A DNA stretch of 46,171 bases, taken from positions 1 through 46,171 of the forward strand of contig JAUIBJ010000001.1 of the NCBI GenBank assembly GCA_030428025.1. The letters run 5' to 3'. The notes beneath the pieces were generated by a model. It was not told the origin of the DNA and did not search any database. It was given only the letters and a program-made list of their open reading frames with translations. This DNA comes from Alphaproteobacteria bacterium (GTDB lineage Bacteria; Pseudomonadota; Alphaproteobacteria; Rhodobacterales; Rhodobacteraceae). This document shows positions 2,737 through 44,447 of the stretch, piece after piece. How positions within the stretch are numbered: the stretch's first letter is position 1; every line of letters starts with the position of its first letter. The position numbers were made by a program, and so were the translations under genes.

Positions 2737-3411
2737 TCACTTCCCCGAACGGAATATGCGACCCAGACCCCAGTCAGATTTGTCCTGAACGCGGAAATGA
2801 TCTTCGAACGTTGAGGTCGAATACCCGAAAGTATCAAAATCCTCCTTGTAGAAATCCAGGATCTTCTGCAAGGTCCGCGATGATATATTCAGAATTTGAC
2901 GTTCGCTCTTCCTGCTATGCGGAACAGCGGATATTTCAGGAAGGTCCAGAACCTGACAGAGCTTTTCAAGTGGCTTCTGCAACCCATTCTCCAGCCTGAA
3001 CACCTCCGCCTCTTTCGTTATAAACTGGTGCTGAGGTCTTATATGGTTGTCTCTCGTAAACGGAAATTCCAAATACCGCTCCAGCGCACGAATAATCCAC
3101 TCATCGGGCGCGGCCGGCTCCTTTTCAAGTCCCGCCTTCATTTTATATTCCGACGCAAGTCGTGAAAACGGATTCCGGACCAAAGCGAATTGCCAGTCAA
3201 AGAAATTCTCACCGAAATACCGTCTGATGATGTCAGAATGGATATGCTGCGGCGTGCATTTCGAGAACTTCAGGGCGGCGTTCTTCTCCTTTGACATCAA
3301 CATCGCCACCTTCACGCCGCTTGCTTTCATGGCGTTTTCGATGCTTGAGCCACCCGTTTTCGGGATGTGGGCGAAGTAGACGAGTCTATGGTTGTTCCTG
3401 AATATCGGCAC
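2737..3411 (-). CDS. Sulfotransferase family 2 protein
   Basis: PAPS-binding motifs HIPKTGGSSI and VRNPFSRLASEY, plus HIRPQ and YKEDFDTFGY. GTG start with AAGGA upstream. Confidence 0.88.
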   Translation of the reverse strand: MPIFRNNHRLVYFAHIPKTGGSSIENAMKASGVKVAMLMSKEKNAALKFSKCTPQHIHSDIIRRYFGENFFDWQFALVRNPFSRLASEYKMKAGLEKEPAAPDEWIIRALERYLEFPFTRDNHIRPQHQFITKEAEVFRLENGLQKPLEKLCQVLDLPEISAVPHSRKSERQILNISSRTLQKILDFYKEDFDTFGYSTSTFEDHFRVQDKSDWGLGRIFRSGK

Positions 3412-6419: not shown

Positions 6420-8821
6420 GCGTTGTTCCCGTCGCCGTCGAAGATCCCGCTATAGCCGCCCCAGAAATTCAGGCCGCGATCGAAGTCGCGCTTGTAGATC
6501 ACTCCGAGCGGCCAGGCATGTTTGGTCAGCACCACCTCGGGATCGCCGTTGAAAAGCATGTCCCAAAGCTCGTAGCAGCCGACGCGATCGCCCGGCACCG
6601 CATAGTCGGGATGCAGCTCAGATGTGATCGGCGGCCGGATGTCCCAGAGATCGGTGTAGTTGGTGGGGATGTTCGTGAAGTCCGGCAGGAGAAGATTGTA
6701 GTTGGCGCCGTTGCCCCGGACGTTGCCGCCCAGCACGACGAGCTTGCCGCCGGTGCCGGGGTTGGTGTTGTAGCCGGCGAAGTGCGCGTTGCAGTAGTTG
6801 CCGACCGAGACAGCGATACCCGTGATCGCGGGGTATGCCTTCTTTGGCGGTGTGGCGTTCAGGTGCTGGACCAGCGTATTGAAATGCGCCTCGGAATTGC
6901 CGCCGGTAAAGCCGGTGATCGCCCGGTCGTGGCCATTCATGAACAGGCTCTGCTCGTGCCTGTGCGGGCCGATGCTGACCGTCCCGTTGGTGCCGCGCGA
7001 CCAGATCGCGCCCAAGCCACTTTCATCGGGGTTGATGTTGACAAAGCCGGTCCAGGCGCCGCGCATGACGACATCGTACCTGCTGACGAACCGCGTCGCC
7101 ATCGAGCCCTGGTTGAACTGAATAAAGTCGTTGTGATTACCCGGCGACATCGCCCGGTCGCGGGCCGGGAAGTTGCAGCCGAAATCGGGGTCAATCATGT
7201 TGCCGCCGTTGGCGATGGTGATGTCATCGCCGCCGACGTAGTTGCCCATCATGCGCTTGATGCGCGGGCGGTCGATCGTGCCGCCGAGCTTGCAAAGCCC
7301 ATCCTTCATGTAGAGGTGAACGTTGCCCTCGACGATCAGGCCCTGGGTGTTGTCGGCGGTGAAGAGATAGTTCGTGACGCCCGACGCGGTGGACCCGACC
7401 GCGACGTTGAACGGCCAGCCCCGGCCGACGCATTTGTAGAACCCGCTGTCGATGGAATTGTCGGCGGTCCAGAGGCCGCTGAAATAGTCCTGCATGTCGG
7501 GGGCGCGCAGATCCATGCGCCACAGGACGATGTTGCGGGAACCGTTGAGCGATCCGGTGCCGATATGTTTCACCGTGACTTCGGGATCGCCGCCGCCGGC
7601 CAGGAAGCCGCCGACCGGGCGGATATAGACGCGCTCGGGCAGGTCGATCCCGCTCAGGTTCATGTGGCCCGTCGTCGTCGTGTCGACCCCGATGCAGCGG
7701 ATCCCGCCCGGATGACTGGCCGCCCAGGCGACAAGCTGGTTGCGCACGTCGGCGGGTGAGGAGACCACGACATCGGGCGGCGGCGGCTGAAGCCCGGCAT
7801 TGGTGGGGTTGCTCGGCGTGGCCGGGACGGTGCGCCAGGACCATGTATCATCGGTCTGCGCCGCAACCGGGTTGCCGGCCTGGTCCTCGAAGGCACCGCC
7901 ATCCCAGCGGATCGAGAGGTTTTGCAGATCGCCCTGCGCCACGACAGGCGTGAGCGTGATCTGCGAGCCCGCGTAAACCGCGTTGACCGCGTCGATGATT
8001 TCGTGGGTGGTCAGCGTGTCCGTGTCGCGGAGATAGAAGTTGCCCGATCCGGCGACGACATTCTCATTCGCGTTGATCGTGATCGGCGCATCCTTGGGAA
8101 CGTCGATGCCGGTCGGGATGATGGAGGACACAACGGGCGGGGTGGTGTCGGCCGCCGGGGTCTTGCCGGTGACCTTCAGTTCGATCGGCAGACCGCCCGC
8201 CTTGGTGATCATCCTGGACACAATCGTGCCGGCCGGGTTGGAAACCCGGAAGCCCTTGATCACGAACGGCACCGTGGTCACGCCGTCAGCCGGCATCTGA
8301 GCACCGTCGCTGTCGTCATAGTTGTTCTCGACAAAGCCCCAGAAACCGATCGTCACCGTGTAGGGGCCGACGACAAGCTGCACGTTTTCCTCTGTGGCGC
8401 CGTCGAACGGGATCACCTCATCGGAGAAGGGACCACCATCGACGATCACGTCGTACATGCGGGGCGCCTTGGCAGTCCCGCCGGGCCAGGGATGCGGGAT
8501 CAGCCGGTTCTGGACGGCATCAATGGGACCATCAGCCATGAGGATGAACTCCAGATCAGTGGGGTCAAAGGCGAAGCGGTCGCCGCCCGTGGGCTCCTCG
8601 CCGGGCGGCTGCTCTTCTGGGGGATCGTCGGCCGGGGGATCTTCCTCGGCCGGGGGATCGCCAGCGGCGGTGTCGTCATAGACCTCGCGCAGCGTGTAGG
8701 TGATCTCGGTGTCGGTCGATGCCTTGAGCCCGGTGCGGACATAGGCTTTGCCGTCCTTGAAAAAGACACTGCGCTCGCCCTCGGCGATCGCCTGGTTGTT
8801 GTGCTTGTAGCGATAGGCCAT
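6416..8821 (-). CDS. Putative tailspike/depolymerase: Ig-like domain plus parallel beta-helix
   Basis: DTTPPVVSS...ITINANENV...FEDQAGN is a Big/SbsA-type Ig signature. The C-half is Asn/Gly-rich with GGDDI and NHNDFIQ, typical of pectin-lyase-like beta-helices. Located in the tail region. Confidence 0.65.
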   Translation of the reverse strand: MAYRYKHNNQAIAEGERSVFFKDGKAYVRTGLKASTDTEITYTLREVYDDTAAGDPPAEEDPPADDPPEEQPPGEEPTGGDRFAFDPTDLEFILMADGPIDAVQNRLIPHPWPGGTAKAPRMYDVIVDGGPFSDEVIPFDGATEENVQLVVGPYTVTIGFWGFVENNYDDSDGAQMPADGVTTVPFVIKGFRVSNPAGTIVSRMITKAGGLPIELKVTGKTPAADTTPPVVSSIIPTGIDVPKDAPITINANENVVAGSGNFYLRDTDTLTTHEIIDAVNAVYAGSQITLTPVVAQGDLQNLSIRWDGGAFEDQAGNPVAAQTDDTWSWRTVPATPSNPTNAGLQPPPPDVVVSSPADVRNQLVAWAASHPGGIRCIGVDTTTTGHMNLSGIDLPERVYIRPVGGFLAGGGDPEVTVKHIGTGSLNGSRNIVLWRMDLRAPDMQDYFSGLWTADNSIDSGFYKCVGRGWPFNVAVGSTASGVTNYLFTADNTQGLIVEGNVHLYMKDGLCKLGGTIDRPRIKRMMGNYVGGDDITIANGGNMIDPDFGCNFPARDRAMSPGNHNDFIQFNQGSMATRFVSRYDVVMRGAWTGFVNINPDESGLGAIWSRGTNGTVSIGPHRHEQSLFMNGHDRAITGFTGGNSEAHFNTLVQHLNATPPKKAYPAITGIAVSVGNYCNAHFAGYNTNPGTGGKLVVLGGNVRGNGANYNLLLPDFTNIPTNYTDLWDIRPPITSELHPDYAVPGDRVGCYELWDMLFNGDPEVVLTKHAWPLGVIYKRDFDRGLNFWGGYSGIFDGDGNNA

Positions 8822-11933: not shown

Positions 11934-14428
11934 CGGGTCAGATCTCCGGCTGCGTTGGAAAGGTCGGGGGCACGGGACGGGGCGATCGCGCCGCGATCCC
12001 ACCATGTACGTGTGCCGAAATCGCGCTCACGGCGCTTTTGCTGGCGGCGCCAGGTGGCCTCGGCTTCGGGATCGAGGAAGGCTTGCAGCTGGTCGGCGAC
12101 CATCCGGTCAAAGGCAAGACGCCCCCAGACCATCGACGAAGCGACGGGCGTGTTGTAGCGCAGGAAGTTCGCCGCATCGCGGCCGAGAAGCGTATCCTTG
12201 CCCTCGATGATCCGCTGGGTGTTCGACGCGATCGGGCCGAGGATGTCCGATCCGAGACCGACGACTGGGCCCGCCAGCGTCTCGGCGATGCCACCACCCG
12301 CCCGGCTCTGCTCGGCCGCGAAGAAATCACCGAAGATGCCAAGCCCGCCGCCCTGGAAGAGCGATGCCATCCAGAACTTGCCCTCGTCCATGGGTCGGGG
12401 ATCGTTGCCCTTGGCCAGTTCCTTCAGCTGGATCGCCAGGGCCCCGGTCAGAAGGAGAAGGCCCGACATCGAGGCGGCGTATTGCGCCTTGGCCATCGGT
12501 GTCGGCTGCGCCTGAAAACGCCGGTACTGGCCCAGCATCAGCGACATCGCGAAGCTCTTGTAGCTCGTCGAGCTGCGCAGAAGCTCGCCCGCGAAAGTGC
12601 CCGGGGCGGCGCTGCCCTGCAGGCGGGCACGACCCTCGAGGCTGGCCGAGGGGATCGCCAGTTCCAGTTGCTCGCGCACCGCCATCTGCAGGCGCATTGC
12701 CAAGCCCTCGGCCTCGGCGCGCGGCATCCGGGTCTGGGTTTCCAGCCAGTACATGGGGGCGATGAAATCGGCGCCGTTGCCGGCGACAAAGCGGGTGGCA
12801 GGATCACGCAACGCATCCCAGTCGGCCGCCGAGATCCCGCGCTCCTCGAAGAGCCGGCGCGTCGGCGGATCGAGATCGGCAAACGCGCGATCGGCCTGGT
12901 CGGCCAGGTGCCCGGCGAATTCCATCTGGAACGAGATCCGCCGCATGTCCGTGATGAAGCTCAGACCAGAAGCGCGCAGCGTGAAACCGGAAAGCCGCTG
13001 AGTGATGCCCGTTCCGATCAGCTGGCCGAAATAGCGCGAGGCGCCGCCACCTGCGTCGGCCAAGGTCGAGGCAACGTAGCCCATGCGCGCGGCGGTCTGA
13101 CGTGTCGCCTGGCTGGAAATCAGTTTCATCGTCGTCGCCATGACATTCTGCGGGCGCAGACCCATGATCCGGGCCGCGACGCCGATCGTCGCCATGTCGG
13201 AGACCGAGGAGAGGACCGCCGAGCCCAGCTGGGTTGCGGTCAGGTAGCCGCGCACGCCGGAAAAGAACCGCGCCCAGGCGATGTTCTCCGGCACGTTGGC
13301 GGCACCCGATTGGTGGGCGAACATGGTGCGCGCCAGGGCCGCCTGCTTCGTCACCTGCTCCTCGAGCTTCGCGCTCTTCAGCTCGGCCGCGCGCTTCTGC
13401 GCGGTCTGCACCGCGAATTCCAGCCCGCCCTTCGGGTTCGGCCCCAGAACGCGCATCATCGCGACATCATGGGCAAGGCCATGCAGCCCGTTCATCATCG
13501 CGGTGAAGGGGTCGCTGGCCCCGAATTTCTGGTTGTAGGCGCGCCAGGCCTTGCCCGACTTGAAATGCAGCACCCGATGATCGGCCCGCTGGTTGTAGAG
13601 CGCCTTGCCGCCCGGCGTCATCGCAGGCTTGCGGTCATCCCAGCCGCGTGTCGTGATGCCGTCATAGACGTCCTTCAGGAAACGGTCGGTCGCGGTCCTG
13701 GGCGGAATGACGTCGGGGGCATTGGCAAAGGGCTTGCCTGTGGTGACGTCGTCGATCCGGTCCCAGGCAAGGTGCTGCTCGATCTCCTCGGCCCAGGCGT
13801 CATACCCTTTGGCACGCAGCTCCTCGATCGAGTGGCTGTGGGCGATGCCGTAATCCTTCAGCTCGCCGATATCGCCGCCATGGGCGTTGAACATCTGCCG
13901 CATGCGGCGCTGCTGATACCGCACCGTATCGGCCAGCCGCTTGGCACTGGCGTTGCCGGTGTCGTCGCCGTGCAGCTCGTCGATCAGGTCGAAGAGAAGC
14001 GCACGATCGCGGCTGTTGCCGACGACGTTCAGGCCGGTGCGTTCCAGCACTTCGGCAAGACCCGCGTTGATGCTGTCGGTCAGGGCCTCGGTCAGCGAAC
14101 GGATGCTTTCGCCTGTGAAGCCCGACCCTTCGGAGAATTCCAGAAGGTTGCGCAACGCCAGCGCCGGATCCGGCGCGGTCAGGATCTGGGCCTTCAGCCG
14201 GCGCATCGCCTGCAGCTGGTTGACGACGGCGTGAAAACGCGAGCGGGCGGCCTTCCGCGTTGCCTCTTTCAGGTCGGCCGCCGCGCTCGCTTCAGCTGCA
14301 GGGCGCGGCATGATCTGCTCATACCGCGTGACCAGCTGATCATAGAGGCCCTGGGCAGCTTGCGCCCGGACCGGGTTCAGTTCCTTAGCGTCTACCGCGC
14401 GCTGGATGCAATCGGCGATCGAGGTCAT
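11930..14428 (-). CDS. Internal virion (ejection) protein, T7 gp16-like position
   Basis: 832 aa, helical, GGGLGIFGDF motif. Lies directly upstream of the tail fiber with ATGA overlaps on both sides. Confidence 0.7.
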   Translation of the reverse strand: MTSIADCIQRAVDAKELNPVRAQAAQGLYDQLVTRYEQIMPRPAAEASAAADLKEATRKAARSRFHAVVNQLQAMRRLKAQILTAPDPALALRNLLEFSEGSGFTGESIRSLTEALTDSINAGLAEVLERTGLNVVGNSRDRALLFDLIDELHGDDTGNASAKRLADTVRYQQRRMRQMFNAHGGDIGELKDYGIAHSHSIEELRAKGYDAWAEEIEQHLAWDRIDDVTTGKPFANAPDVIPPRTATDRFLKDVYDGITTRGWDDRKPAMTPGGKALYNQRADHRVLHFKSGKAWRAYNQKFGASDPFTAMMNGLHGLAHDVAMMRVLGPNPKGGLEFAVQTAQKRAAELKSAKLEEQVTKQAALARTMFAHQSGAANVPENIAWARFFSGVRGYLTATQLGSAVLSSVSDMATIGVAARIMGLRPQNVMATTMKLISSQATRQTAARMGYVASTLADAGGGASRYFGQLIGTGITQRLSGFTLRASGLSFITDMRRISFQMEFAGHLADQADRAFADLDPPTRRLFEERGISAADWDALRDPATRFVAGNGADFIAPMYWLETQTRMPRAEAEGLAMRLQMAVREQLELAIPSASLEGRARLQGSAAPGTFAGELLRSSTSYKSFAMSLMLGQYRRFQAQPTPMAKAQYAASMSGLLLLTGALAIQLKELAKGNDPRPMDEGKFWMASLFQGGGLGIFGDFFAAEQSRAGGGIAETLAGPVVGLGSDILGPIASNTQRIIEGKDTLLGRDAANFLRYNTPVASSMVWGRLAFDRMVADQLQAFLDPEAEATWRRQQKRRERDFGTRTWWDRGAIAPSRAPDLSNAAGDLTR

Positions 14429-17400
14429 GCTGCGGCCCTCCCGGCGGTGCAAAGGTTCAGGACTTCGGCCAGTTCCTCGTCGGCCTCGATGTCGTCCAGG
14501 AGCTCGGCCGCCGTGTATTCGGGGCCGTTTTCATCGAGGCGGAACGTCAGATCGCCGAGATCCGCGCGTATGGCGTTGACTTCGTCAGAAATGGCCCCCA
14601 TGTTAGGGGTGTCCTGAAGAGGATTTTTCCCCATGAAACTCGAAACGTTCTGCAGCTGGGATGGTCGGCCCGCGGTGCTGTTCCGCGAAGAGGGCGAGTT
14701 GTTTGCCCTGGCCAAGCTCGAACCGGGGGCGCCCTGGTCTGAAGTGGACGCTGGCGATGTCTGGTTCACGTCTCGCGCCGTCTCGACGCGCGAGGCTTTC
14801 GAAGCCGAATTCGAGCGGAACTTCGGATCGCTCGACGTGCCATCTGCCCTGAGCTTGGCAGCATCGAAGTCGGTTCCGGCCGCCGCCGAGTAAAGCCGTT
14901 CCTGGTCACGCAGCAAGTTCGCCTTGCGCGGATCGCCGCCAGGCAGCTTGCGCCACTCTTCATAAAGCGCGGTACCGGGCTGTTTCGCGCGATACATCGC
15001 ATCCGTCCAGATCTGCACTTCGCTCAGCATGCCGTCGTCATGCCGCACGATGATCTTGCGATCGGCATAGCCGGTCGGCTGGCGTACCCATCCCTCATCG
15101 ACAATGTCAAAACGTGCGGCCAGCGCGTCAGCTACCGCCTCTGCCTGGTCGATCGAGATGATGACAAAGCCCCCGCGTGAGACGTCGGTCAACCGGCGCG
15201 GCGCGTCATATTGCTTGCGCGCCAGTTTCCTTTCCGTGGTCGCGCGATCCTTCAGGCCGGGATCCTTGAACTCGACGCCCAGCCCGGCCGCGATCTCGTC
15301 GCCGGCGCGGGTAAGCCGTTCCTGCGCTGGCGCGGCAAGGCGGTAAAGCGTGTCGATATCATCGAAGGGCTGCGCCTCTGCCAGGGTGCGGACATAGTCA
15401 CCTGGCGCCACGTTGCTGAGATCCGGCGCGGTTTGGCCGGCCCCGCGCAGATCCTCGATCGCGGCCTGGTCGGCCTCAATCGCTTCCGGGCTGTCGGCCC
15501 CCCTGGCAAAAGCGTCCTCGGCCAAGTTGCCAGGATCAGCGATCGGCGTCGGCGCGGCCGTCGGCCGGCCCAGCTCGTCGGGCAGATCCGCAAAGGCCTC
15601 GCCGTCGAGGGCGCGCAGCACTTCCGCCGGGCCAGGGGCTTCGCCGAACAGTCCGGCTTCTGTCGTGCCCACCTTGCGCGCCTCATCCGCGTAGCGGGTC
15701 AGGAAGGCCGCGATCTCGTCCTTGGGTGCCGCCCGGCTGCCCCGCCAGAACTTGCGGACCAGCGCCGCCGTCAGGGGGCTGATCGCGCCGTCCAGAAGGT
15801 CGACATCGGCGATCAGCTCCTCGAGCATGCCGGCAACGCTCTTGCCCTCGGCCTGGGCCGCTTCGCGCGCGGCCGCGATCAGCCGCATGGCATCGAGGAC
15901 GAAGGGGGAAATATCCATGTCGGCGCGCACAGTGCCGGCGGCGATGTCCGCCTTCAGGCCCGCCCAGGCGGGCGCGGCATCGGCCAGCGCGTCCATCAGC
16001 CCGCGCAGCTCACCGGCATCGGCCTCGGCGAAACGGGCGACGATGTCGGGCGCGTCCCAGGCGCGGGCGAAGAGTGCCGCCTGCAGGCGACGGATCCCCT
16101 CGGCGTTCAGGGCGCCCGTGGCGTCCACCATGGCGGCCCTCTCTGCCTGTGGCAGGCCACCGAGTGCCGCCTGGGCGAAGGCGCGGTTCTCGGGGCCGCC
16201 CAGCCGCGCCCCTGGCGTATAAAGGCCGAGGGTCGCCTCGCTCATTGCGGCACCATCGGCGGCGGCCCGTTCGGTGGGTGACATGCGGGCAACGGTCGCG
16301 TTGTTCGCCTCTCGCACGAAACGCTGGCGCCCCGCCTGGTCCAGCTCGGACGTGCGGCGCGCGACCAGGACCGGCTCTTTCACGCCCTCGGGGATCTCGT
16401 AGCCGGCCGCCTCGATCTCGGCGCGGTAGGCTTCCGCGCGATCGGGATGGCGTTCGAAGGCGCGCTGGATCGCCATCACGCGGCCGTTGCCGCTTTCGAT
16501 GACGTTGTCGGGCCCCACGACGGGCGCGCCGCGATCGGCCTCGGGCGCTGGCATCAGCCGGGCAGGATCGAGCTTCGCGGCGATCTCGGCGATCTGCTCG
16601 TCGGACGCGGCGCGCGATCGGTCGCGCGGCTGCAGCTCACCCGTTGCGCGCTTCAGAAGCGAAGCGTCCACAACCTCATAGGTGACGTCGATGCGGGTGT
16701 CCCCTGCGGTGACTTGCCCGGACCGGGTATAGCCGCGTGAGGTGGAAAAGCGCGGCGCATCGGCCGAGGGTGGCGGGGTCTTGCCGGTCCATCGCGGGAT
16801 CCGGCCGCCCTGGTACTGCGCCATGACGTCCTTCGCATGGCCGACGCGGCGCCCCAGGTGCGGGATCCCGGGGCGTTCGAAATGCTGGCTGATCAGCGCG
16901 GCCGCCTCTTCAGCGGTGCGGGCTGTCCGGATCTTCGCCCAGGCGCCGGCCTCGCTGGTCCGCAACTCGTGAAGCAGGAACGCGATCTGGGTGTCGAGAT
17001 CCGTAGCGGGCTTGCCGCGCTTGGCCGCAAAGTCCTGAAGGGCGCGCCGGCGCGGGCCGTTCCACTGCCAGACGCCAAGCGCATTACCACCATCGCCGAC
17101 GGCCCCGGGCAACAGACCGGGGCCGCTTTCGACCATGCCGTTCCCGACGAAAGCGGCGGCAATATGCGGCTCGATCTCGGCCTCGAGGAGCCGGCCGAAG
17201 ATATAGCCGACCCGGTTCGTTTGTGGGCTGGCATTGCCGGTCAGGCCGAAGTTGAAGTCGGCCAGGCGCGGCAGAGTGCCAGGCGCGGCGACGGGCTGGT
17301 CGGACGCATCGGGGGGCAGGTTCTCTTCCAGGCGGCGCCGGGTTTCCTCGACCGCCGCTTCCTGTCGCATGGGTGACACGCCGTCGGGGGTCGCCTCGGC

Positions 17401-18150
17401 AGCCGCGCGACCGCGCGCGGTGCGGTATTCGCGGAACCGCGTGATCCCGATCGCACCCCCCTTGATCAGGCCTGCGAATGCGCCCGATAGGGCGGTGGCT
17501 GTCAGGACATCGGCGATCGGGTTCGGTTCTGCCACGTTCAGCTCGCCGGCGACTTGCCGGCGCTGGTCGATCATGGTGATTTCGGTGGCGCCGCCGAGCG
17601 CGCCTTCGATCGCTACCGTTCCCAGAAGCCCGGCGCGGGCCGGCGCGCCCAGAAGAAGCGAGGCGAGTGATTTTTCCTCGGTCAGACTGGCCCAGCTGCG
17701 GCCAAGGAATTCCGCGCCCCAACTGCCCTCCGGGGCAGCGGACAGGATCGCGACCTGCTCATCGTACTCTGCCTGTCGCCGGGCATTTACGATCGCGTCG
17801 AATTCCTCCGGGGTGGTCGGAAAGGCGAATTCGCCGTCGCCCTCTGGGGCCTTCGTGATCTCCGGGTTGCGCGCCTTGGCCTGCTGCAGAACCGTGAAGA
17901 GCTCGCTGCGGCGGTGCGACGGCATTTCGTAGGCATCATAGGGCCGCATCATGCGGTCCTTCAGGTCCGGCGGCAGGACGCCGATCAGTTGATCGGCCAG
18001 CTCATCTTCGAAGTTCTTCTTCCGGTTCCAGCTGTCGTCCTCGATCCGCTGCATGACGCTGGCAGCGCCGAACCGCTCCCCGAAGCTCGGCGCGGGTGGC
18101 GCCTCGGTGGCGATATCCTCGCGGGTGTTCTCGGCCAGGAAAAAGGTCAT
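14425..18150 (-). CDS. Polyvalent internal virion protein: phage tail lysozyme, ddrB-like ParB and RelA/SpoT-like synthetase domains
   Basis: Lysozyme about 16820-17220 (VGNGMVESG..LGVWQW..FERPG). ddrB-ParB about 16250-16700 (LQPRDRSR..GAPVV..IESGNGR). Synthetase about 14890-15370 (LKDRATTERK, LTDVSRG, GYADRK, EVQIWT). Confidence 0.8.
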   Translation of the reverse strand: MTFFLAENTREDIATEAPPAPSFGERFGAASVMQRIEDDSWNRKKNFEDELADQLIGVLPPDLKDRMMRPYDAYEMPSHRRSELFTVLQQAKARNPEITKAPEGDGEFAFPTTPEEFDAIVNARRQAEYDEQVAILSAAPEGSWGAEFLGRSWASLTEEKSLASLLLGAPARAGLLGTVAIEGALGGATEITMIDQRRQVAGELNVAEPNPIADVLTATALSGAFAGLIKGGAIGITRFREYRTARGRAAAEATPDGVSPMRQEAAVEETRRRLEENLPPDASDQPVAAPGTLPRLADFNFGLTGNASPQTNRVGYIFGRLLEAEIEPHIAAAFVGNGMVESGPGLLPGAVGDGGNALGVWQWNGPRRRALQDFAAKRGKPATDLDTQIAFLLHELRTSEAGAWAKIRTARTAEEAAALISQHFERPGIPHLGRRVGHAKDVMAQYQGGRIPRWTGKTPPPSADAPRFSTSRGYTRSGQVTAGDTRIDVTYEVVDASLLKRATGELQPRDRSRAASDEQIAEIAAKLDPARLMPAPEADRGAPVVGPDNVIESGNGRVMAIQRAFERHPDRAEAYRAEIEAAGYEIPEGVKEPVLVARRTSELDQAGRQRFVREANNATVARMSPTERAAADGAAMSEATLGLYTPGARLGGPENRAFAQAALGGLPQAERAAMVDATGALNAEGIRRLQAALFARAWDAPDIVARFAEADAGELRGLMDALADAAPAWAGLKADIAAGTVRADMDISPFVLDAMRLIAAAREAAQAEGKSVAGMLEELIADVDLLDGAISPLTAALVRKFWRGSRAAPKDEIAAFLTRYADEARKVGTTEAGLFGEAPGPAEVLRALDGEAFADLPDELGRPTAAPTPIADPGNLAEDAFARGADSPEAIEADQAAIEDLRGAGQTAPDLSNVAPGDYVRTLAEAQPFDDIDTLYRLAAPAQERLTRAGDEIAAGLGVEFKDPGLKDRATTERKLARKQYDAPRRLTDVSRGGFVIISIDQAEAVADALAARFDIVDEGWVRQPTGYADRKIIVRHDDGMLSEVQIWTDAMYRAKQPGTALYEEWRKLPGGDPRKANLLRDQERLYSAAAGTDFDAAKLRADGTSSDPKFRSNSASKASRVETARDVNQTSPASTSDQGAPGSSLARANNSPSSRNSTAGRPSQLQNVSSFMGKNPLQDTPNMGAISDEVNAIRADLGDLTFRLDENGPEYTAAELLDDIEADEELAEVLNLCTAGRAAA
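14576..14623 (+). promoter_or_regulatory. Sigma70-like promoter and Shine-Dalgarno for the nested antisense ORF
   Basis: TTGACT (14576-14581), 17-bp spacer, CATGTT (14599-14604). GAGGA at 14619-14623 lies 9 nt before ATG 14633. Confidence 0.55.
14633..14893 (+). CDS. Nested antisense 86-aa protein, candidate antitoxin/immunity protein
   Basis: Own promoter-like and SD signals. Acidic, aromatic, globular-looking sequence, while the host frame over the same bases is a Ser-rich linker. Confidence 0.7.
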   Translation: MKLETFCSWDGRPAVLFREEGELFALAKLEPGAPWSEVDAGDVWFTSRAVSTREAFEAEFERNFGSLDVPSALSLAASKSVPAAAE

Positions 18151-35781: not shown

Positions 35782-36071
35782 CAGACCGGCTCCGCGATCT
35801 TAGGTTCCGGGGCGGGCAAGGTCTCGACCAGCTCGACCAGCTTCTGCAGCGCGCGCGGGCGGCGGATGCGGTAGCGGATGACGCAGGGGCCATGCTTGGG
35901 GTGCCTCTGGATCCAGCAATAGTGGCCAAGTTCATGCGGCGTCACGACGCCATCGCGCCGCATGATGTTTCCCCAGGCAACGTGGTGCCCTTCGACTTCG
36001 ACATGCTGGCCGAGCTGCACCGGACATCCCCGCCCATCATGCTCGATCCACGGCCCCCATTCGTCGCTCAT
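35781..36071 (-). CDS. Hypothetical phage protein
   Basis: WIEHDGRGCPV...IRYRI pattern; coupled to neighbours. Confidence 0.7.
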   Translation of the reverse strand: MSDEWGPWIEHDGRGCPVQLGQHVEVEGHHVAWGNIMRRDGVVTPHELGHYCWIQRHPKHGPCVIRYRIRRPRALQKLVELVETLPAPEPKIAEPV

Positions 36072-37000
36072 TGATCCGCCTCCGGGTTGTCGCCTTCCCA
36101 GCCCAGCGGGGCCTGGAAGCCGGCCGCGTTGCGGTGTCCGCCGCCGCCGTAGCTTGCCGCGATCTCCGCGACGTCCAGACCGTCGCCGCGCGACCGCAGC
36201 GAAAAGACCCGAGCATCCGCCCGATCGAAATAGCAGGCGGCAAAGGGTGCGCCCTCGGCCATCGCGCCGGCGGCGTCACTGGCCATCGTGTATGGCAGGT
36301 TCGCGACCGGCACGCGATGACCGCCGATGACCATTTCCCGGCGTGTGACCTTCAGAAGCTCGGCGATGTCCTTGTGGTGCTTGCGCTCGATCGCCGCGCC
36401 CTCGACCACCATGGTGCGGAAACCATCCCGACCCTCCATCTGGGTGGCAATGGCATCCCAGAAATCGAAGCGGTATTCCTTGCTGAAAACCGCCGCGGCG
36501 ATCTCGCGCGACCAGGTCAATTCGAACCGCCAGAGGTCCCGATCGGCGACGTAGTCGACCAGCTTCGGTCGAGGCTGCCCCGGATGTAAGAAATCCCACG
36601 CGAGCTGTGCCCCGGATCGGTCCATGTCAAACAGGACGTATTGCGAGGCGTGGGGAATACCCTCGCAGATGTCCTGCGCGACGTTCATCTGGTGGCGCTT
36701 CCATCCGAACGGCGGGTGCCAGGCGCTCATGTCGATGCCGAAACCGTGAAGGTCAGCCTGCGCCGTCTTGTGGTGATCGAGGATCAGGATCGAGCGGGCG
36801 GGCCCCGACATGGCCTCAAGGACCGGGCGCTTATAGCTGAAATCCACCATGATCACGTCGGCGCCGGTTACGTCGGGCGGATCCTCGCCATAGATGCCCG
36901 GCACGAATTCGACCTTGTCGCCGAGCGCCTTCCAGACCGCCCAGGCGGCGGTGAAGCCGTCCGCGCAGTTGCCGTGATAGATGCAAATTGTCCTGGTCAT
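36068..37000 (-). CDS. DHH/DHHA1 family phosphoesterase
   Basis: YHGNCADG, VDFS, LDHH, DRDLW, FSLRS and GGGGHRNAAGF motifs. Confidence 0.92.
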   Translation of the reverse strand: MTRTICIYHGNCADGFTAAWAVWKALGDKVEFVPGIYGEDPPDVTGADVIMVDFSYKRPVLEAMSGPARSILILDHHKTAQADLHGFGIDMSAWHPPFGWKRHQMNVAQDICEGIPHASQYVLFDMDRSGAQLAWDFLHPGQPRPKLVDYVADRDLWRFELTWSREIAAAVFSKEYRFDFWDAIATQMEGRDGFRTMVVEGAAIERKHHKDIAELLKVTRREMVIGGHRVPVANLPYTMASDAAGAMAEGAPFAACYFDRADARVFSLRSRGDGLDVAEIAASYGGGGHRNAAGFQAPLGWEGDNPEADQ

Positions 37001-40819: not shown

Positions 40820-40912
40820 AACGCTACATCTAGATGTGCGCTGCGTGATTTGGCAACTGAAAATTTCAGACTAACTGACGTTTTTTTCAGATTGTGAGTG
40901 ACTACTTGTCAC
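40801..40912. promoter_or_regulatory. Immunity switch region with GTGAC-N5-GTCAC operators
   Basis: GTGTCAGGTGGTCAC at 40801-40815, GTGACTACTTGTCAC at 40898-40912, and the CTGAAAATTTCAG palindrome at 40857-40869. Confidence 0.7.
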
Positions 40913-40914
40913 GG

Positions 40915-41526
40915 ATGGATGACAAGTGGTTCAGAAAGCGGCAAAAAATCGCGGGCGTGACCGCTGAGGACATCGCCCAGATCATGGGCAGGTCGCGGTC
41001 TAATGTGTCGCACATCCTGAACGGCCACCAGAGGATGAGCCTCGAATGGGCGAAGGCGTTCGCTCAGGCCCTCGACGCGCCTCTGGATGAGGTCCTTCAG
41101 CACGCCGGCGTAATGGATGAACAACAGGCGCAGACCCTTCGCCCCGGCTTTTCCGAAAGCGATGTGGCGCCCTGGAAGGGCAAGGATGCCGAAGATCGCG
41201 CCGTTCACACGGTGGCGCAGGCGCATGGCGAACGGCCCGGCGTCGATGTCTGGCAGGTGAAAAGCCCGGCTCTGTCGCTTATGGGCTACATGCCGGGCGA
41301 CATGATGCTGGTCGATACCCATGCGGCAGAGCGTGTGCGGCAGGGCGATATCGTCGTGGCGCAGGTCTATGACAACACCAAGGGCACGGCCTTTACCCTG
41401 CTCAGGCGCTATGAACCGCCGGTCCTGGTCGCGGCCTCGCCCGATCCTGACGACCGGCGGGTGCATGTGGTGGACGGGGTCAACGTGGTGATCCGGGGGC
41501 GGGTCACGGCAAGTTGGAGAAACTGA
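40915..41526 (+). CDS. CI-like repressor (XRE HTH plus S24-like C-terminal domain)
   Basis: VTAEDIAQIMGRSRSNVSHILNG HTH; GYMPGDMMLVD..GDIVVAQ..IRGRV S24-like fold. Confidence 0.88.
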   Translation: MDDKWFRKRQKIAGVTAEDIAQIMGRSRSNVSHILNGHQRMSLEWAKAFAQALDAPLDEVLQHAGVMDEQQAQTLRPGFSESDVAPWKGKDAEDRAVHTVAQAHGERPGVDVWQVKSPALSLMGYMPGDMMLVDTHAAERVRQGDIVVAQVYDNTKGTAFTLLRRYEPPVLVAASPDPDDRRVHVVDGVNVVIRGRVTASWRN

Positions 41527-43277: not shown

Positions 43278-44447
43278 ATGCCAAAGCGCCCTGCCCGCCT
43301 TATCCCCGATCCGCCGCGCGGCCTGCGCGAACGGCCGCGCGCGGATGGCTCGGTGCGGATATGGTGGGAACCCCCTGCCGAGGCGCGGGCGAAGGGCATG
43401 ACGCCGGTCGAGCTGGATGAGACGCGCCTGACCTGGTCGCGGCGCGAGGCCGAGAAGCTGAACCGCGAGGCGGGCAAGACGCCGCGCCGGCGCGCCGTGG
43501 GGCTGACGGTCGGCCATGTGATCGACGACTATGTCGCGACCAGCCTGAAGTTCCGCAAGAAGAGCCCCACCACCAAGATCAAGTACCGCCAGTTCTTCGC
43601 GAACATCCGCGAGAAATGGGGGGACGAGCTGATCGCCGACTTCACCAAGCCGGTGATCAATTCCTGGTACGAAACCCTTTACGACAGGCGCGGCAAGTGG
43701 ATGGCGATCGCGCTGATCCGGCATTTCTCGATCCTGTTTTCCCATGCCGAGCTGCGCGGCTGGCGCCCGGAAGGGTCGAACCCCTGCGCCAGGCTGGGGA
43801 TGGAGATCCCCAAGGGACGCCGGCGCACCGCCAGCTGGGACGATTTCGACGCGCTCGTGGCGGCGGCCGACAGGCTCGGCCTCGCCTCGGTCGGGCATGC
43901 GATCTTCATCGCGACCCTGACCGGCCAGCGACAGGCCGACATCGTCGAGGCCGATCGCGCGCTCTTCCGCGAGATCTCGATCGACACGGGCGAGGCCGAA
44001 CCGCTCGCGCTCTGGACCTGGCAGCTGACCCGGTCGAAGCGCGGCAACACGTCGGTTCTGCCGCTCAGCCCGGACCTGGTCGCGCGGATCCGCCCGCGCC
44101 TCGAGGACGACGGGACGGGCGCGCTCCTGGTCGACGAACGCACCGGCACCGCTTTCACGCCCGACCGCTTCCGCGCGCGGTTCGAAGAGGTCCGCGCGGC
44201 CGCGATCGCGGCGGGCAATCCGGGCCTCAAGGGCCTGCAGTTCCGCGACCTGCGGCGCACCTTCGGGCGGCTCGCGCGCGCGGGCGGGGCCGAGAAGGGC
44301 GATGTGGCCGACGTGCTCGGCAACACGGCGGACGAAGATCAGTACCTGGGCGACGTCTACATGGCGCCCGAAATCATGGGCCTCCTGCGCGCCATCGGCG
44401 CCGTGCGGCGGCCGGAGAAGAAGAGCGAGGAAAGGAAACAGGCATGA
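43278..44447 (+). CDS. int: Tyrosine recombinase / phage integrase
   Basis: TGQRQAD (R), SKRG (K), FRDLRRT, LGN and DVY (Y) motifs; GAGGAG SD. Confidence 0.92.
   Translation: MPKRPARLIPDPPRGLRERPRADGSVRIWWEPPAEARAKGMTPVELDETRLTWSRREAEKLNREAGKTPRRRAVGLTVGHVIDDYVATSLKFRKKSPTTKIKYRQFFANIREKWGDELIADFTKPVINSWYETLYDRRGKWMAIALIRHFSILFSHAELRGWRPEGSNPCARLGMEIPKGRRRTASWDDFDALVAAADRLGLASVGHAIFIATLTGQRQADIVEADRALFREISIDTGEAEPLALWTWQLTRSKRGNTSVLPLSPDLVARIRPRLEDDGTGALLVDERTGTAFTPDRFRARFEEVRAAAIAAGNPGLKGLQFRDLRRTFGRLARAGGAEKGDVADVLGNTADEDQYLGDVYMAPEIMGLLRAIGAVRRPEKKSEERKQA

Follow-up and report, generated by a model that had tools for sequence, protein, structure and literature searches.

How can a toxin domain lodged in the middle of an essential phage structural protein still move together with its antidote? 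The question is raised by a 46,171-nucleotide (nt) stretch of DNA from a member of the Rhodobacteraceae (Alphaproteobacteria; GenBank assembly GCA_030428025.1, contig JAUIBJ010000001.1), hereafter the window, which is one entire contig of an assembly that is 82% complete. On the minus strand of a phage in this window, a gene for a 1241-amino-acid (aa) predicted virion protein includes an internal small alarmone synthetase-fold domain, and an 86-codon open reading frame (ORF) lies entirely within that gene on the opposite strand (Table 1). A preliminary description of the window, made from its letters alone, had interpreted this ORF as the immunity gene of the synthetase, and every computational test named there that was run (ORF, ribosome-binding site, promoter, co-occurrence, substitutions and annotation) supports the interpretation. 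We consider it likely that the nested gene encodes a small immunity protein that binds and blocks the adjacent Tas1-like synthetase and is made independently of the late operon.

The features first described at this locus hold at the sequence level: the ORF is wholly contained in the host gene, a TTGACT-17-CATGTT promoter-like element precedes it, and a GAGGA Shine-Dalgarno-like (SD) sequence stands 9 nt before its ATG. Its stop codon, said to fall at the end of the synthetase domain, is a TAA (14891–14893) overlapping host codons ~1086–1087, within the last long helix of the modelled domain, and the Ser-rich host linker reported over the ORF is apparent as 19% Ser in the host frame there vs 4% in the synthetase. 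A generic promoter scan of positions 13500–16000 returned 0 sites and, given the host residues, the chance of a stop-free antisense frame at this ORF is 0.36; the features of the window are therefore unremarkable by themselves, and the proof is comparative.

Loci were collected with the synthetase or the carrier (the host gene product and its relatives) as query, and once with the ORF, yielding 176 loci in total, 125 of which carry the synthetase as 91 distinct sequences. After four iterations, the profile built for the ORF family matches 88 loci at E<1e-3, all with the synthetase, and has no match in any synthetase-less locus among the 176. At the same threshold a homologous ORF lies beside 58 of the 91 distinct synthetases, in a nested (51), convergent (5, with 0–46 nt of overlap) or same-strand tandem (2) layout. 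Among the remaining 33, a diverged nested ORF with SD and promoter-like box occurs in the same phase and place in 21, a diverged convergent ORF in one, and a co-oriented small gene in two that belong to a distant bacterial clade, while one is cut off by the contig end. Nine aligned diverged ORFs match the main ORF family (E=4e-5); the diverged nested set further gives a weak whole-length match to the co-oriented small gene of locus L164 (E=0.003), the corresponding value for the main family alignment against the L164 set being 0.12. Within the carrier family (54 loci), the ORF is present in 8/8 synthetase-bearing members and 0/46 synthetase-less ones (the host gene is complete in 31 of these and truncated at the end of the locus in 15), which bears out the expectation that ORF, SD and promoter are conserved only with the synthetase; when synthetase-less relatives were scanned, nested antisense ORFs preceded by an SD and a promoter came up only as weak, scattered candidates. 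The link to the partner also holds across different layouts and carriers, including a MuF-fused carrier (L143) and carriers of >1600 codons (L082, L121, L134). By this distribution, the small gene behaves as a cognate gene linked to the predicted toxin domain only, as in polymorphic toxin systems.

The signals around the start codon are likewise conserved in the family. On our own consensus score, which rewards a 17-nt spacer, 34 of 44 non-redundant loci reach at least 10 upstream of the start vs 47/854 control windows on the same strand. In 22/44 loci the end of the -10 box stands exactly 19 nt ahead of the start codon, and TTGAC occurs at -75..-25 of the start in 22/44 vs 75/1760 control windows. 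For the window locus, transcription is predicted to begin ~6–8 nt behind position 14604. An SD of at least five bases is found in 33/44 loci vs 5/891 control ATGs, a count that is favored by starts having been picked by best SD. The -10-like box reads TATATC, TATATT or TACATT in many relatives, and the window's own TTGACT-17-CATGTT recurs identically in L001, L083 and L085. The tandem locus L138 has a low promoter score, as expected for an operon gene. Both L138 (4192–4728) and L144 (4193–4734) show two same-strand copies of the partner gene after the synthetase.

Selection on the antisense frame, also anticipated in the preliminary description, is discernible in the substitutions. Over the nested stretch the mean BLOSUM62 score of changes is -0.51 to -0.64 in the antisense frame vs -0.84 in the host frame, and the relationship is reversed over the synthetase (-1.07 antisense vs -0.24 host). 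The 33 non-redundant nested loci show 0 antisense stops in 2568 codons vs 25 expected from synonymous resampling, a supporting count and not a P value, given that the ORFs are delimited by their own stops and the loci are related; the synthetase-region control shows 145 vs 142 expected. In 30/34 carrier homologues the host frame bears the footprint of the best conserved motif of the ORF, as counted by a strict pattern.

Third codon positions of the two frames coincide in this phase, and the ORF could in principle be a mere shadow cast by the host frame. As noted above, a stop-free stretch this long is no rarity in this phase in the window; the first homologue search came back empty (a single-sequence search with 6 candidates, none significant), and the ESM Atlas returned only three weak unnamed clusters (0.75–0.76), which are leads only. 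The same family, however, occurs as convergent, tandem and fused genes and in proteins in which it is repeated up to five times, and thus the ORF is no shadow of the host frame. Together with the conserved SD and promoter-like box and the substitutions that favor the antisense frame, these non-overlapping homologues led us to reject the shadow reading, which we regard as scarcely credible. On the combined evidence of homologues, signals and substitution pattern, the 86-codon ORF is a real conserved gene nested antisense.

A full-library profile search recovered 677 representatives of the small-protein family at E<=0.001, many of them 60–100 aa long and many annotated as separate genes or fused domains, with some fused to membrane segments. 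In ten longer proteins without Pfam matches (P0036, P0037, P0039, P0040, P0049, P0057, P0067, P0073, P0096, P0133), the partner domain appears in 2–5 tandem copies or in fusions with hydrophobic segments; these might be orphan immunity arrays or decoys. The claim that standard annotation would miss the nested gene is matched by the record of gene callers: 5/6 nested copies are absent from the protein collection, the sixth coming from a 951-base contig, and 3/3 non-nested copies are present.

The small protein is modelled with a pLDDT (predicted local distance difference test score) of 78, residues 1–70 being confident, and residues ~1–70 adopt a beta-beta-beta-beta-alpha-beta-alpha order in which the fifth strand is short. 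Pfam, PHROGs and NCBIfam hold no family for it, a Foldseek search of the PDB and viral models gave no match at E<=0.001, its profile has chance matches only among PDB sequences, and the best hit of a wide structural search over 48,161 chains reaches Z 4.5, with no chain at Z 5. In that search the immunity protein Tis1 (6ox6_B) ranks 22/48,161, with Z 3.0, a root-mean-square deviation (rmsd) of 3.4 and 59/76 residues aligned, a placing that is at most suggestive. Hidden Markov model (HMM) scores of the family vs Tis1 and IapK lie within background, and the diverged nested set matches a Tis1 orthologue with E=0.29; with the diverged nested and L164 sets as intermediates, the family could not be joined conclusively to Tis1/IapK. 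The weak alignments to the Tis1 orthologue and to IapK-like genes share a short C-terminal D-x3-G/S-x2-I/V-S/T-x-E pattern. We regard the small proteins as a new and unnamed protein family.

The RelA/SpoT-like domain of the preliminary description was borne out in a more specific form. Pfam RelA_SpoT does not detect host residues ~923–1095, Pfam seeing only the lysozyme and ddrB-ParB domains of this protein, whereas the best match of the synthetase-domain profile is Tas1 (E=9e-13), the type VI secretion effector also termed Apk1. The domain is modelled with a pLDDT of 94.8, and the top Foldseek matches of the model are Tas1 (E=4e-9, TM (template modeling) score 0.67), SaEAS, SAS1 and RelP; by profile and modelled fold, then, the synthetase is closest to Tas1/Apk1. 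Residues K967, D989, R992, D1030, E1044 and Q1046 are invariant in 55/55 non-redundant synthetases, and the catalytic Asp and Arg of syn2 (D989, R992) and Glu and Gln of syn4 (E1044, Q1046) are retained and align with Tas1. R992 and E1044 align with R330 and E382, named as active-site residues of Apk1 (PMC12691689). Given these conserved catalytic residues, the synthetase is probably enzymatically active. The syn3 motif is GYxDRK, with K1032 replacing N370 of Tas1/Apk1; in the literature syn3 is given as GxN in Apk enzymes and SxH in (p)ppGpp synthetases, the further Apk signatures being RYT in syn2 and YH in syn4 (PMC12226406). The host protein has no PAAR (Apk1) or MuF (Apk2) N-terminal domain detectable by Pfam.

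The synthetase domain has no match among the INPHARED phages, and in class-wide genome samples its profile is found in 6/401 genomes and that of the partner in 1/401, the genome of the window itself. Two chromosomal loci in same-class bacterial genomes (L164:1477–2324 and L165:1480–2308) encode a stand-alone synthetase with a co-oriented gene of 63–64 aa; a viral scan with the L164 synthetase as query gave no matches. In Bordetella phage PHB04 (L177:2077–4342), genes for a portal, a synthetase-bearing protein, a 69-aa protein and a hydrolase follow one another in the Apk2-IapK-Aph1 order, and these Apk2-IapK-Aph1-like genes carry hypothetical annotation.

The synthetase occupies a variable slot of the carrier. 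In a FastTree phylogeny of the ParB-containing region from the window and 29 of the 54 carrier loci (omitting truncated loci, near copies and distant or very large carriers), 7/30 rows are synthetase-bearing and require 6 changes. This pattern indicates that the synthetase and the nested gene are gained or lost together as one cassette. The slot otherwise holds a zeta toxin (L030, L031, L037), the nuclease domain PBECR1 (L024, L040, L034) or nothing, indicating a conserved carrier with an exchangeable toxin domain in an internal slot ahead of the conserved C-terminal end. In the synthetase tree, which is unrooted, the convergent loci form one supported group that includes the MuF-fused carrier. 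Some further slot contents were noted by eye: L021 and P0034 appear to have an ADP-ribosyltransferase-like domain. Despite this other slot domain, the last 120 residues of P0034 still show, in the host frame, the footprint of a portion of the nested gene, which may have been left behind when the cassette was replaced. In L021, a convergent 109-aa ORF situated where the carrier gene ends (7168–7497, minus strand) has an SD and a signal-peptide-like start. Antisense -35/17/-10 matches lie right behind PBECR1 and point back across it in L024 and L040 (~7006) and in L034 (~7603); among 24 synthetase-less carriers scanned, a score of at least 10 occurs only in L024/L040, L034 and L021. The PBECR1-adjacent matches come without a clear SD and ORF and might represent antisense RNA control.

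As to genomic setting, annotation of 16 window proteins recovered a podovirus gene order on the minus strand, with terminase, head-tail adaptor, major head, tail tubular proteins and internal virion protein. The host gene has a 712-aa ORF and the tail tubular/internal virion genes on one side and a virion structural gene of phrog_684 on the other, and by this position its product would be an ejection protein; it combines several unrelated enzymatic domains (lysozyme, ddrB-ParB and synthetase) in one protein of the late virion region. A Paracoccaceae assembly and a Roseobacter contain its close relatives, and a homologous carrier (P0022) is present in a cultured strain, Roseobacter insulae. The lysogenic context that had been presumed for the locus is likewise found: with a CI-like repressor and an integrase encoded on the strand of the nested gene, as seen in a scan of 48 window ORFs, the phage is, by gene content, a temperate podovirus. 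Elsewhere the window encodes a DHH phosphoesterase among the replication genes (36068–37000, minus strand) and, near its left end, a sulfotransferase-like protein (2737–3411, minus strand).

Table 1. Positions of the nested gene, its host gene and associated elements in the window
Feature	Position	Strand	Basis or remark
Nested antisense gene, 86 aa, predicted immunity protein	14633..14893	+	homologues, SD, frame-wise substitution pattern
-35-like box TTGACT	14576..14581	+	host frame there is Val-Asn
-10-like box CATGTT	14599..14604	+	17 nt behind the -35 box; weak at the window locus
Shine-Dalgarno-like GAGGA	14619..14623	+	9 nt ahead of ATG
Host gene, 1241-aa predicted internal virion (ejection) protein, polyvalent type	14425..18150	-	gene position, domains
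Small alarmone synthetase-fold domain, host residues ~923-1095	14866..15384	-	profile and fold
ddrB-like ParB domain, residues 484-599	16354..16701	-	PF18763, E 9e-37
Phage tail lysozyme domain, residues 315-445	16816..17208	-	PF18013, E 3e-26
CI-like repressor	40894..41526	+	phrog_4, E 1e-10; nested gene on same strand
Integrase	43278..44447	+	phrog_1, E 8e-25

We propose the following scheme for these elements. A toxin domain would sit inside a structural protein, before its conserved C-terminal end, and be expressed from the late operon. As a separate downstream gene cannot travel with an internal-domain cassette, the immunity gene would be placed on the opposite strand, written into a tolerant Ser-rich linker and equipped with its own promoter of the host sigma70 type. 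This promoter would provide immunity both in the lysogen, where the late operon is off, and in the cell that assembles the virions. A new cell would then receive the carrier without the inhibitor, and the injected synthetase would pyrophosphorylate a nucleotide or RNA acceptor, most likely yielding (p)ppApp; the new cell would be slowed until the promoter on the incoming DNA supplies the inhibitor, and lysogens would be protected from the start. We infer production of the small protein and its binding to or inhibition of the synthetase, as well as toxicity of the domain and its delivery by virions. For both Tas1 and MuF-Apk2, the toxin gene is followed by a small one whose product occludes the active site (PMC10083569, PMC12226406), and Jamet et al. 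propose roles for MuF toxins that resemble this scheme of naive cells and lysogens (PMC5576092). On a larger and more tentative view, which we entertain as a possibility only, an in-frame cassette in an ejection protein would combine a new synthetase subfamily (GYxDRK, possibly with a new acceptor) with a new immunity family on opposite strands, the promoter would act as a timer that limits the shutdown of the new host by the injected enzyme to a brief period while lysogens are immune throughout, and embedded antisense control might be a general unannotated layer in virion-borne toxins; a general layer is suggested because similar promoter matches lie behind the PBECR1 domains.

Several observations weigh against the immunity gene as we propose it. 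A nested gene travels with its cassette simply through contiguity, and the related nature of the loci means that their counts exaggerate independence. Eight of the 91 distinct synthetases (seven in the L071 clade, and L133), all in other hosts, have no partner by profile, and an ORF scan of three of them (L071, L074, L133) likewise revealed none; the synthetase does not, therefore, always need a partner. The Apk signatures are absent, the window having DRK in syn3, RGG in syn2 and IW in syn4. The structural match to Tis1 falls in the noise range of that search, and the profile matches to a Tis1 orthologue (E=0.054) and to IapK-like genes (E=0.023 and 0.11) are not significant. Finally, location in the virion and delivery into the cytoplasm are read from gene position alone. 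In these partnerless forms (L071–L080 and L133), the synthetase makes up the C-terminus of proteins of ~470 aa, which might have another immunity or constitute a non-toxic branch.

Some of these points are shared by a reading in which the small protein serves the synthetase in a different role, such as chaperone, activator or substrate adaptor, and the enzyme is a mild device for lysis-lysogeny signalling and not a toxin. The syn motifs differ from both the Apk and the RelA/SpoT homolog (RSH) consensus, the synthetases without a partner favor a non-inhibitory role, and known immunity proteins show no significant homology to the small protein. A promoter independent of the late operon nevertheless suits protection better than a helper needed only alongside the enzyme, and the size, position and diversity of the small gene match those of the immunity genes of the nearest enzymes; we regard this alternative as improbable. 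We likewise see little likelihood in protection acting at the level of RNA, in which an antisense transcript across the synthetase would silence leaky late-operon expression with the protein secondary or co-acting. Such a transcript would indeed enter the synthetase coding sequence, no clear terminator follows the ORF stop (a weak hairpin-T site at 15195–15207 is at chance level, and other hairpins lack T runs), and two distinct PBECR1 relatives (L024/L040 and L034) show the ORF-less antisense promoter matches described above. Same-strand tandem (L138, L144), fused or repeated copies, on the other hand, cannot act as antisense RNA, and amino-acid conservation together with the SD speaks for selection on a protein. 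In a third alternative, the prophage would use the pair inside the cell, as a toxin-antitoxin or anti-superinfection module: the small protein restrains the synthetase, and its release upon infection by another phage aborts that infection. Modules of toxic small alarmone synthetases (toxSAS) such as CapRel are activated by phage proteins (PMC12691689), and the partner gene has its own promoter-like box on the repressor strand; however, the synthetase forms an internal part of a structural protein encoded on the lytic strand and expressed late, and would not be made in the lysogen, and polyvalent proteins of this type have been proposed to be packaged and injected (PMC5512222). This, too, we judge unlikely, and we retain the small immunity protein with its own promoter as the favored explanation.

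Among known systems, the closest in mode is MuF-Apk2/IapK (BcTis1)/Aph1, which likewise comprises a temperate phage, a predicted virion carrier, a synthetase of the Tas1-like branch and a small neighbor of ~65–90 codons; one member of the present synthetase clade, L143, is itself MuF-fused. The two differ in that the carrier here is of the lysozyme plus ddrB-ParB ejection type with an internal, not terminal, synthetase, in that syn3 is DRK and not GxN, and in that no Aph1 hydrolase adjoins. The small gene here is nested antisense with its own promoter-like box, unlike the IapK gene, which is co-oriented in an operon; more generally, Apk1 and Apk2 have a co-oriented downstream immunity gene, whereas 51/58 strong cases here are nested and 2 co-oriented. 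The IapK-like genes tested are not significantly similar to the partner family of the window. The pair of Tas1/Apk1 and Tis1 (PDB 6OX6) shares with the present system the best synthetase profile and fold match, the aligned active-site D, R, E and Q, and a small protein of similar size with a weak whole-length fold match (Z 3.0, in the noise range) and the short C-terminal pattern, although the small proteins show no significant homology; it is unlike it in its PAAR domain, in N370 where the window has K1032, and in lacking the phage context and the nested antisense layout. The carrier itself resembles the polyvalent proteins of phages (Iyer et al., 2017, PMC5512222) as a multidomain protein of the late virion region with lysozyme, DdrB-ParB and RelA/SpoT-type domains, and, in its relatives, as a slot that also accepts PBECR1 and zeta domains.

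In overlapping or antisense accessory genes of phages and in antisense immunity genes of the colicin type, a protective or accessory function is likewise encoded in a different frame or on the opposite strand, under a promoter of its own. These examples are adjacent and convergent or lie on the same strand, whereas here the toxin-bearing coding sequence accommodates the gene together with its SD and promoter-like box while its own frame is preserved. RelA/SpoT domains in polyvalent proteins are already known (PMC5512222), and neither 'antisense' nor 'opposite strand' occurs in that text. A search of open full-text papers, which covers neither subscription articles (among them the original reports of Tas1 and Apk2) nor supplements, brought up no immunity gene lying nested and antisense within the gene of a phage toxin; some of these synthetases may appear in the supplements to PMC5512222 and PMC12691689. 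What is new here, as far as the comparison extends, is the carrier type, the protein family and the embedded antisense layout, the mode resembling that of MuF-Apk2/IapK being known.

In prokaryotic genomes, conserved protein genes that lie fully nested and antisense and have a promoter of their own are rare, and they are disputed. The one described here is backed by dozens of diverged phages, non-overlapping homologues and a clear partner, and it would account for the way in which a toxin domain embedded midway in an essential structural protein still moves with its antidote. By extension, toxin domains of polyvalent proteins that look like 'orphans' may be accompanied by hidden immunity genes that escape the gene callers, and the role of virion-borne alarmone synthetases at infection becomes directly testable through a two-gene assay.

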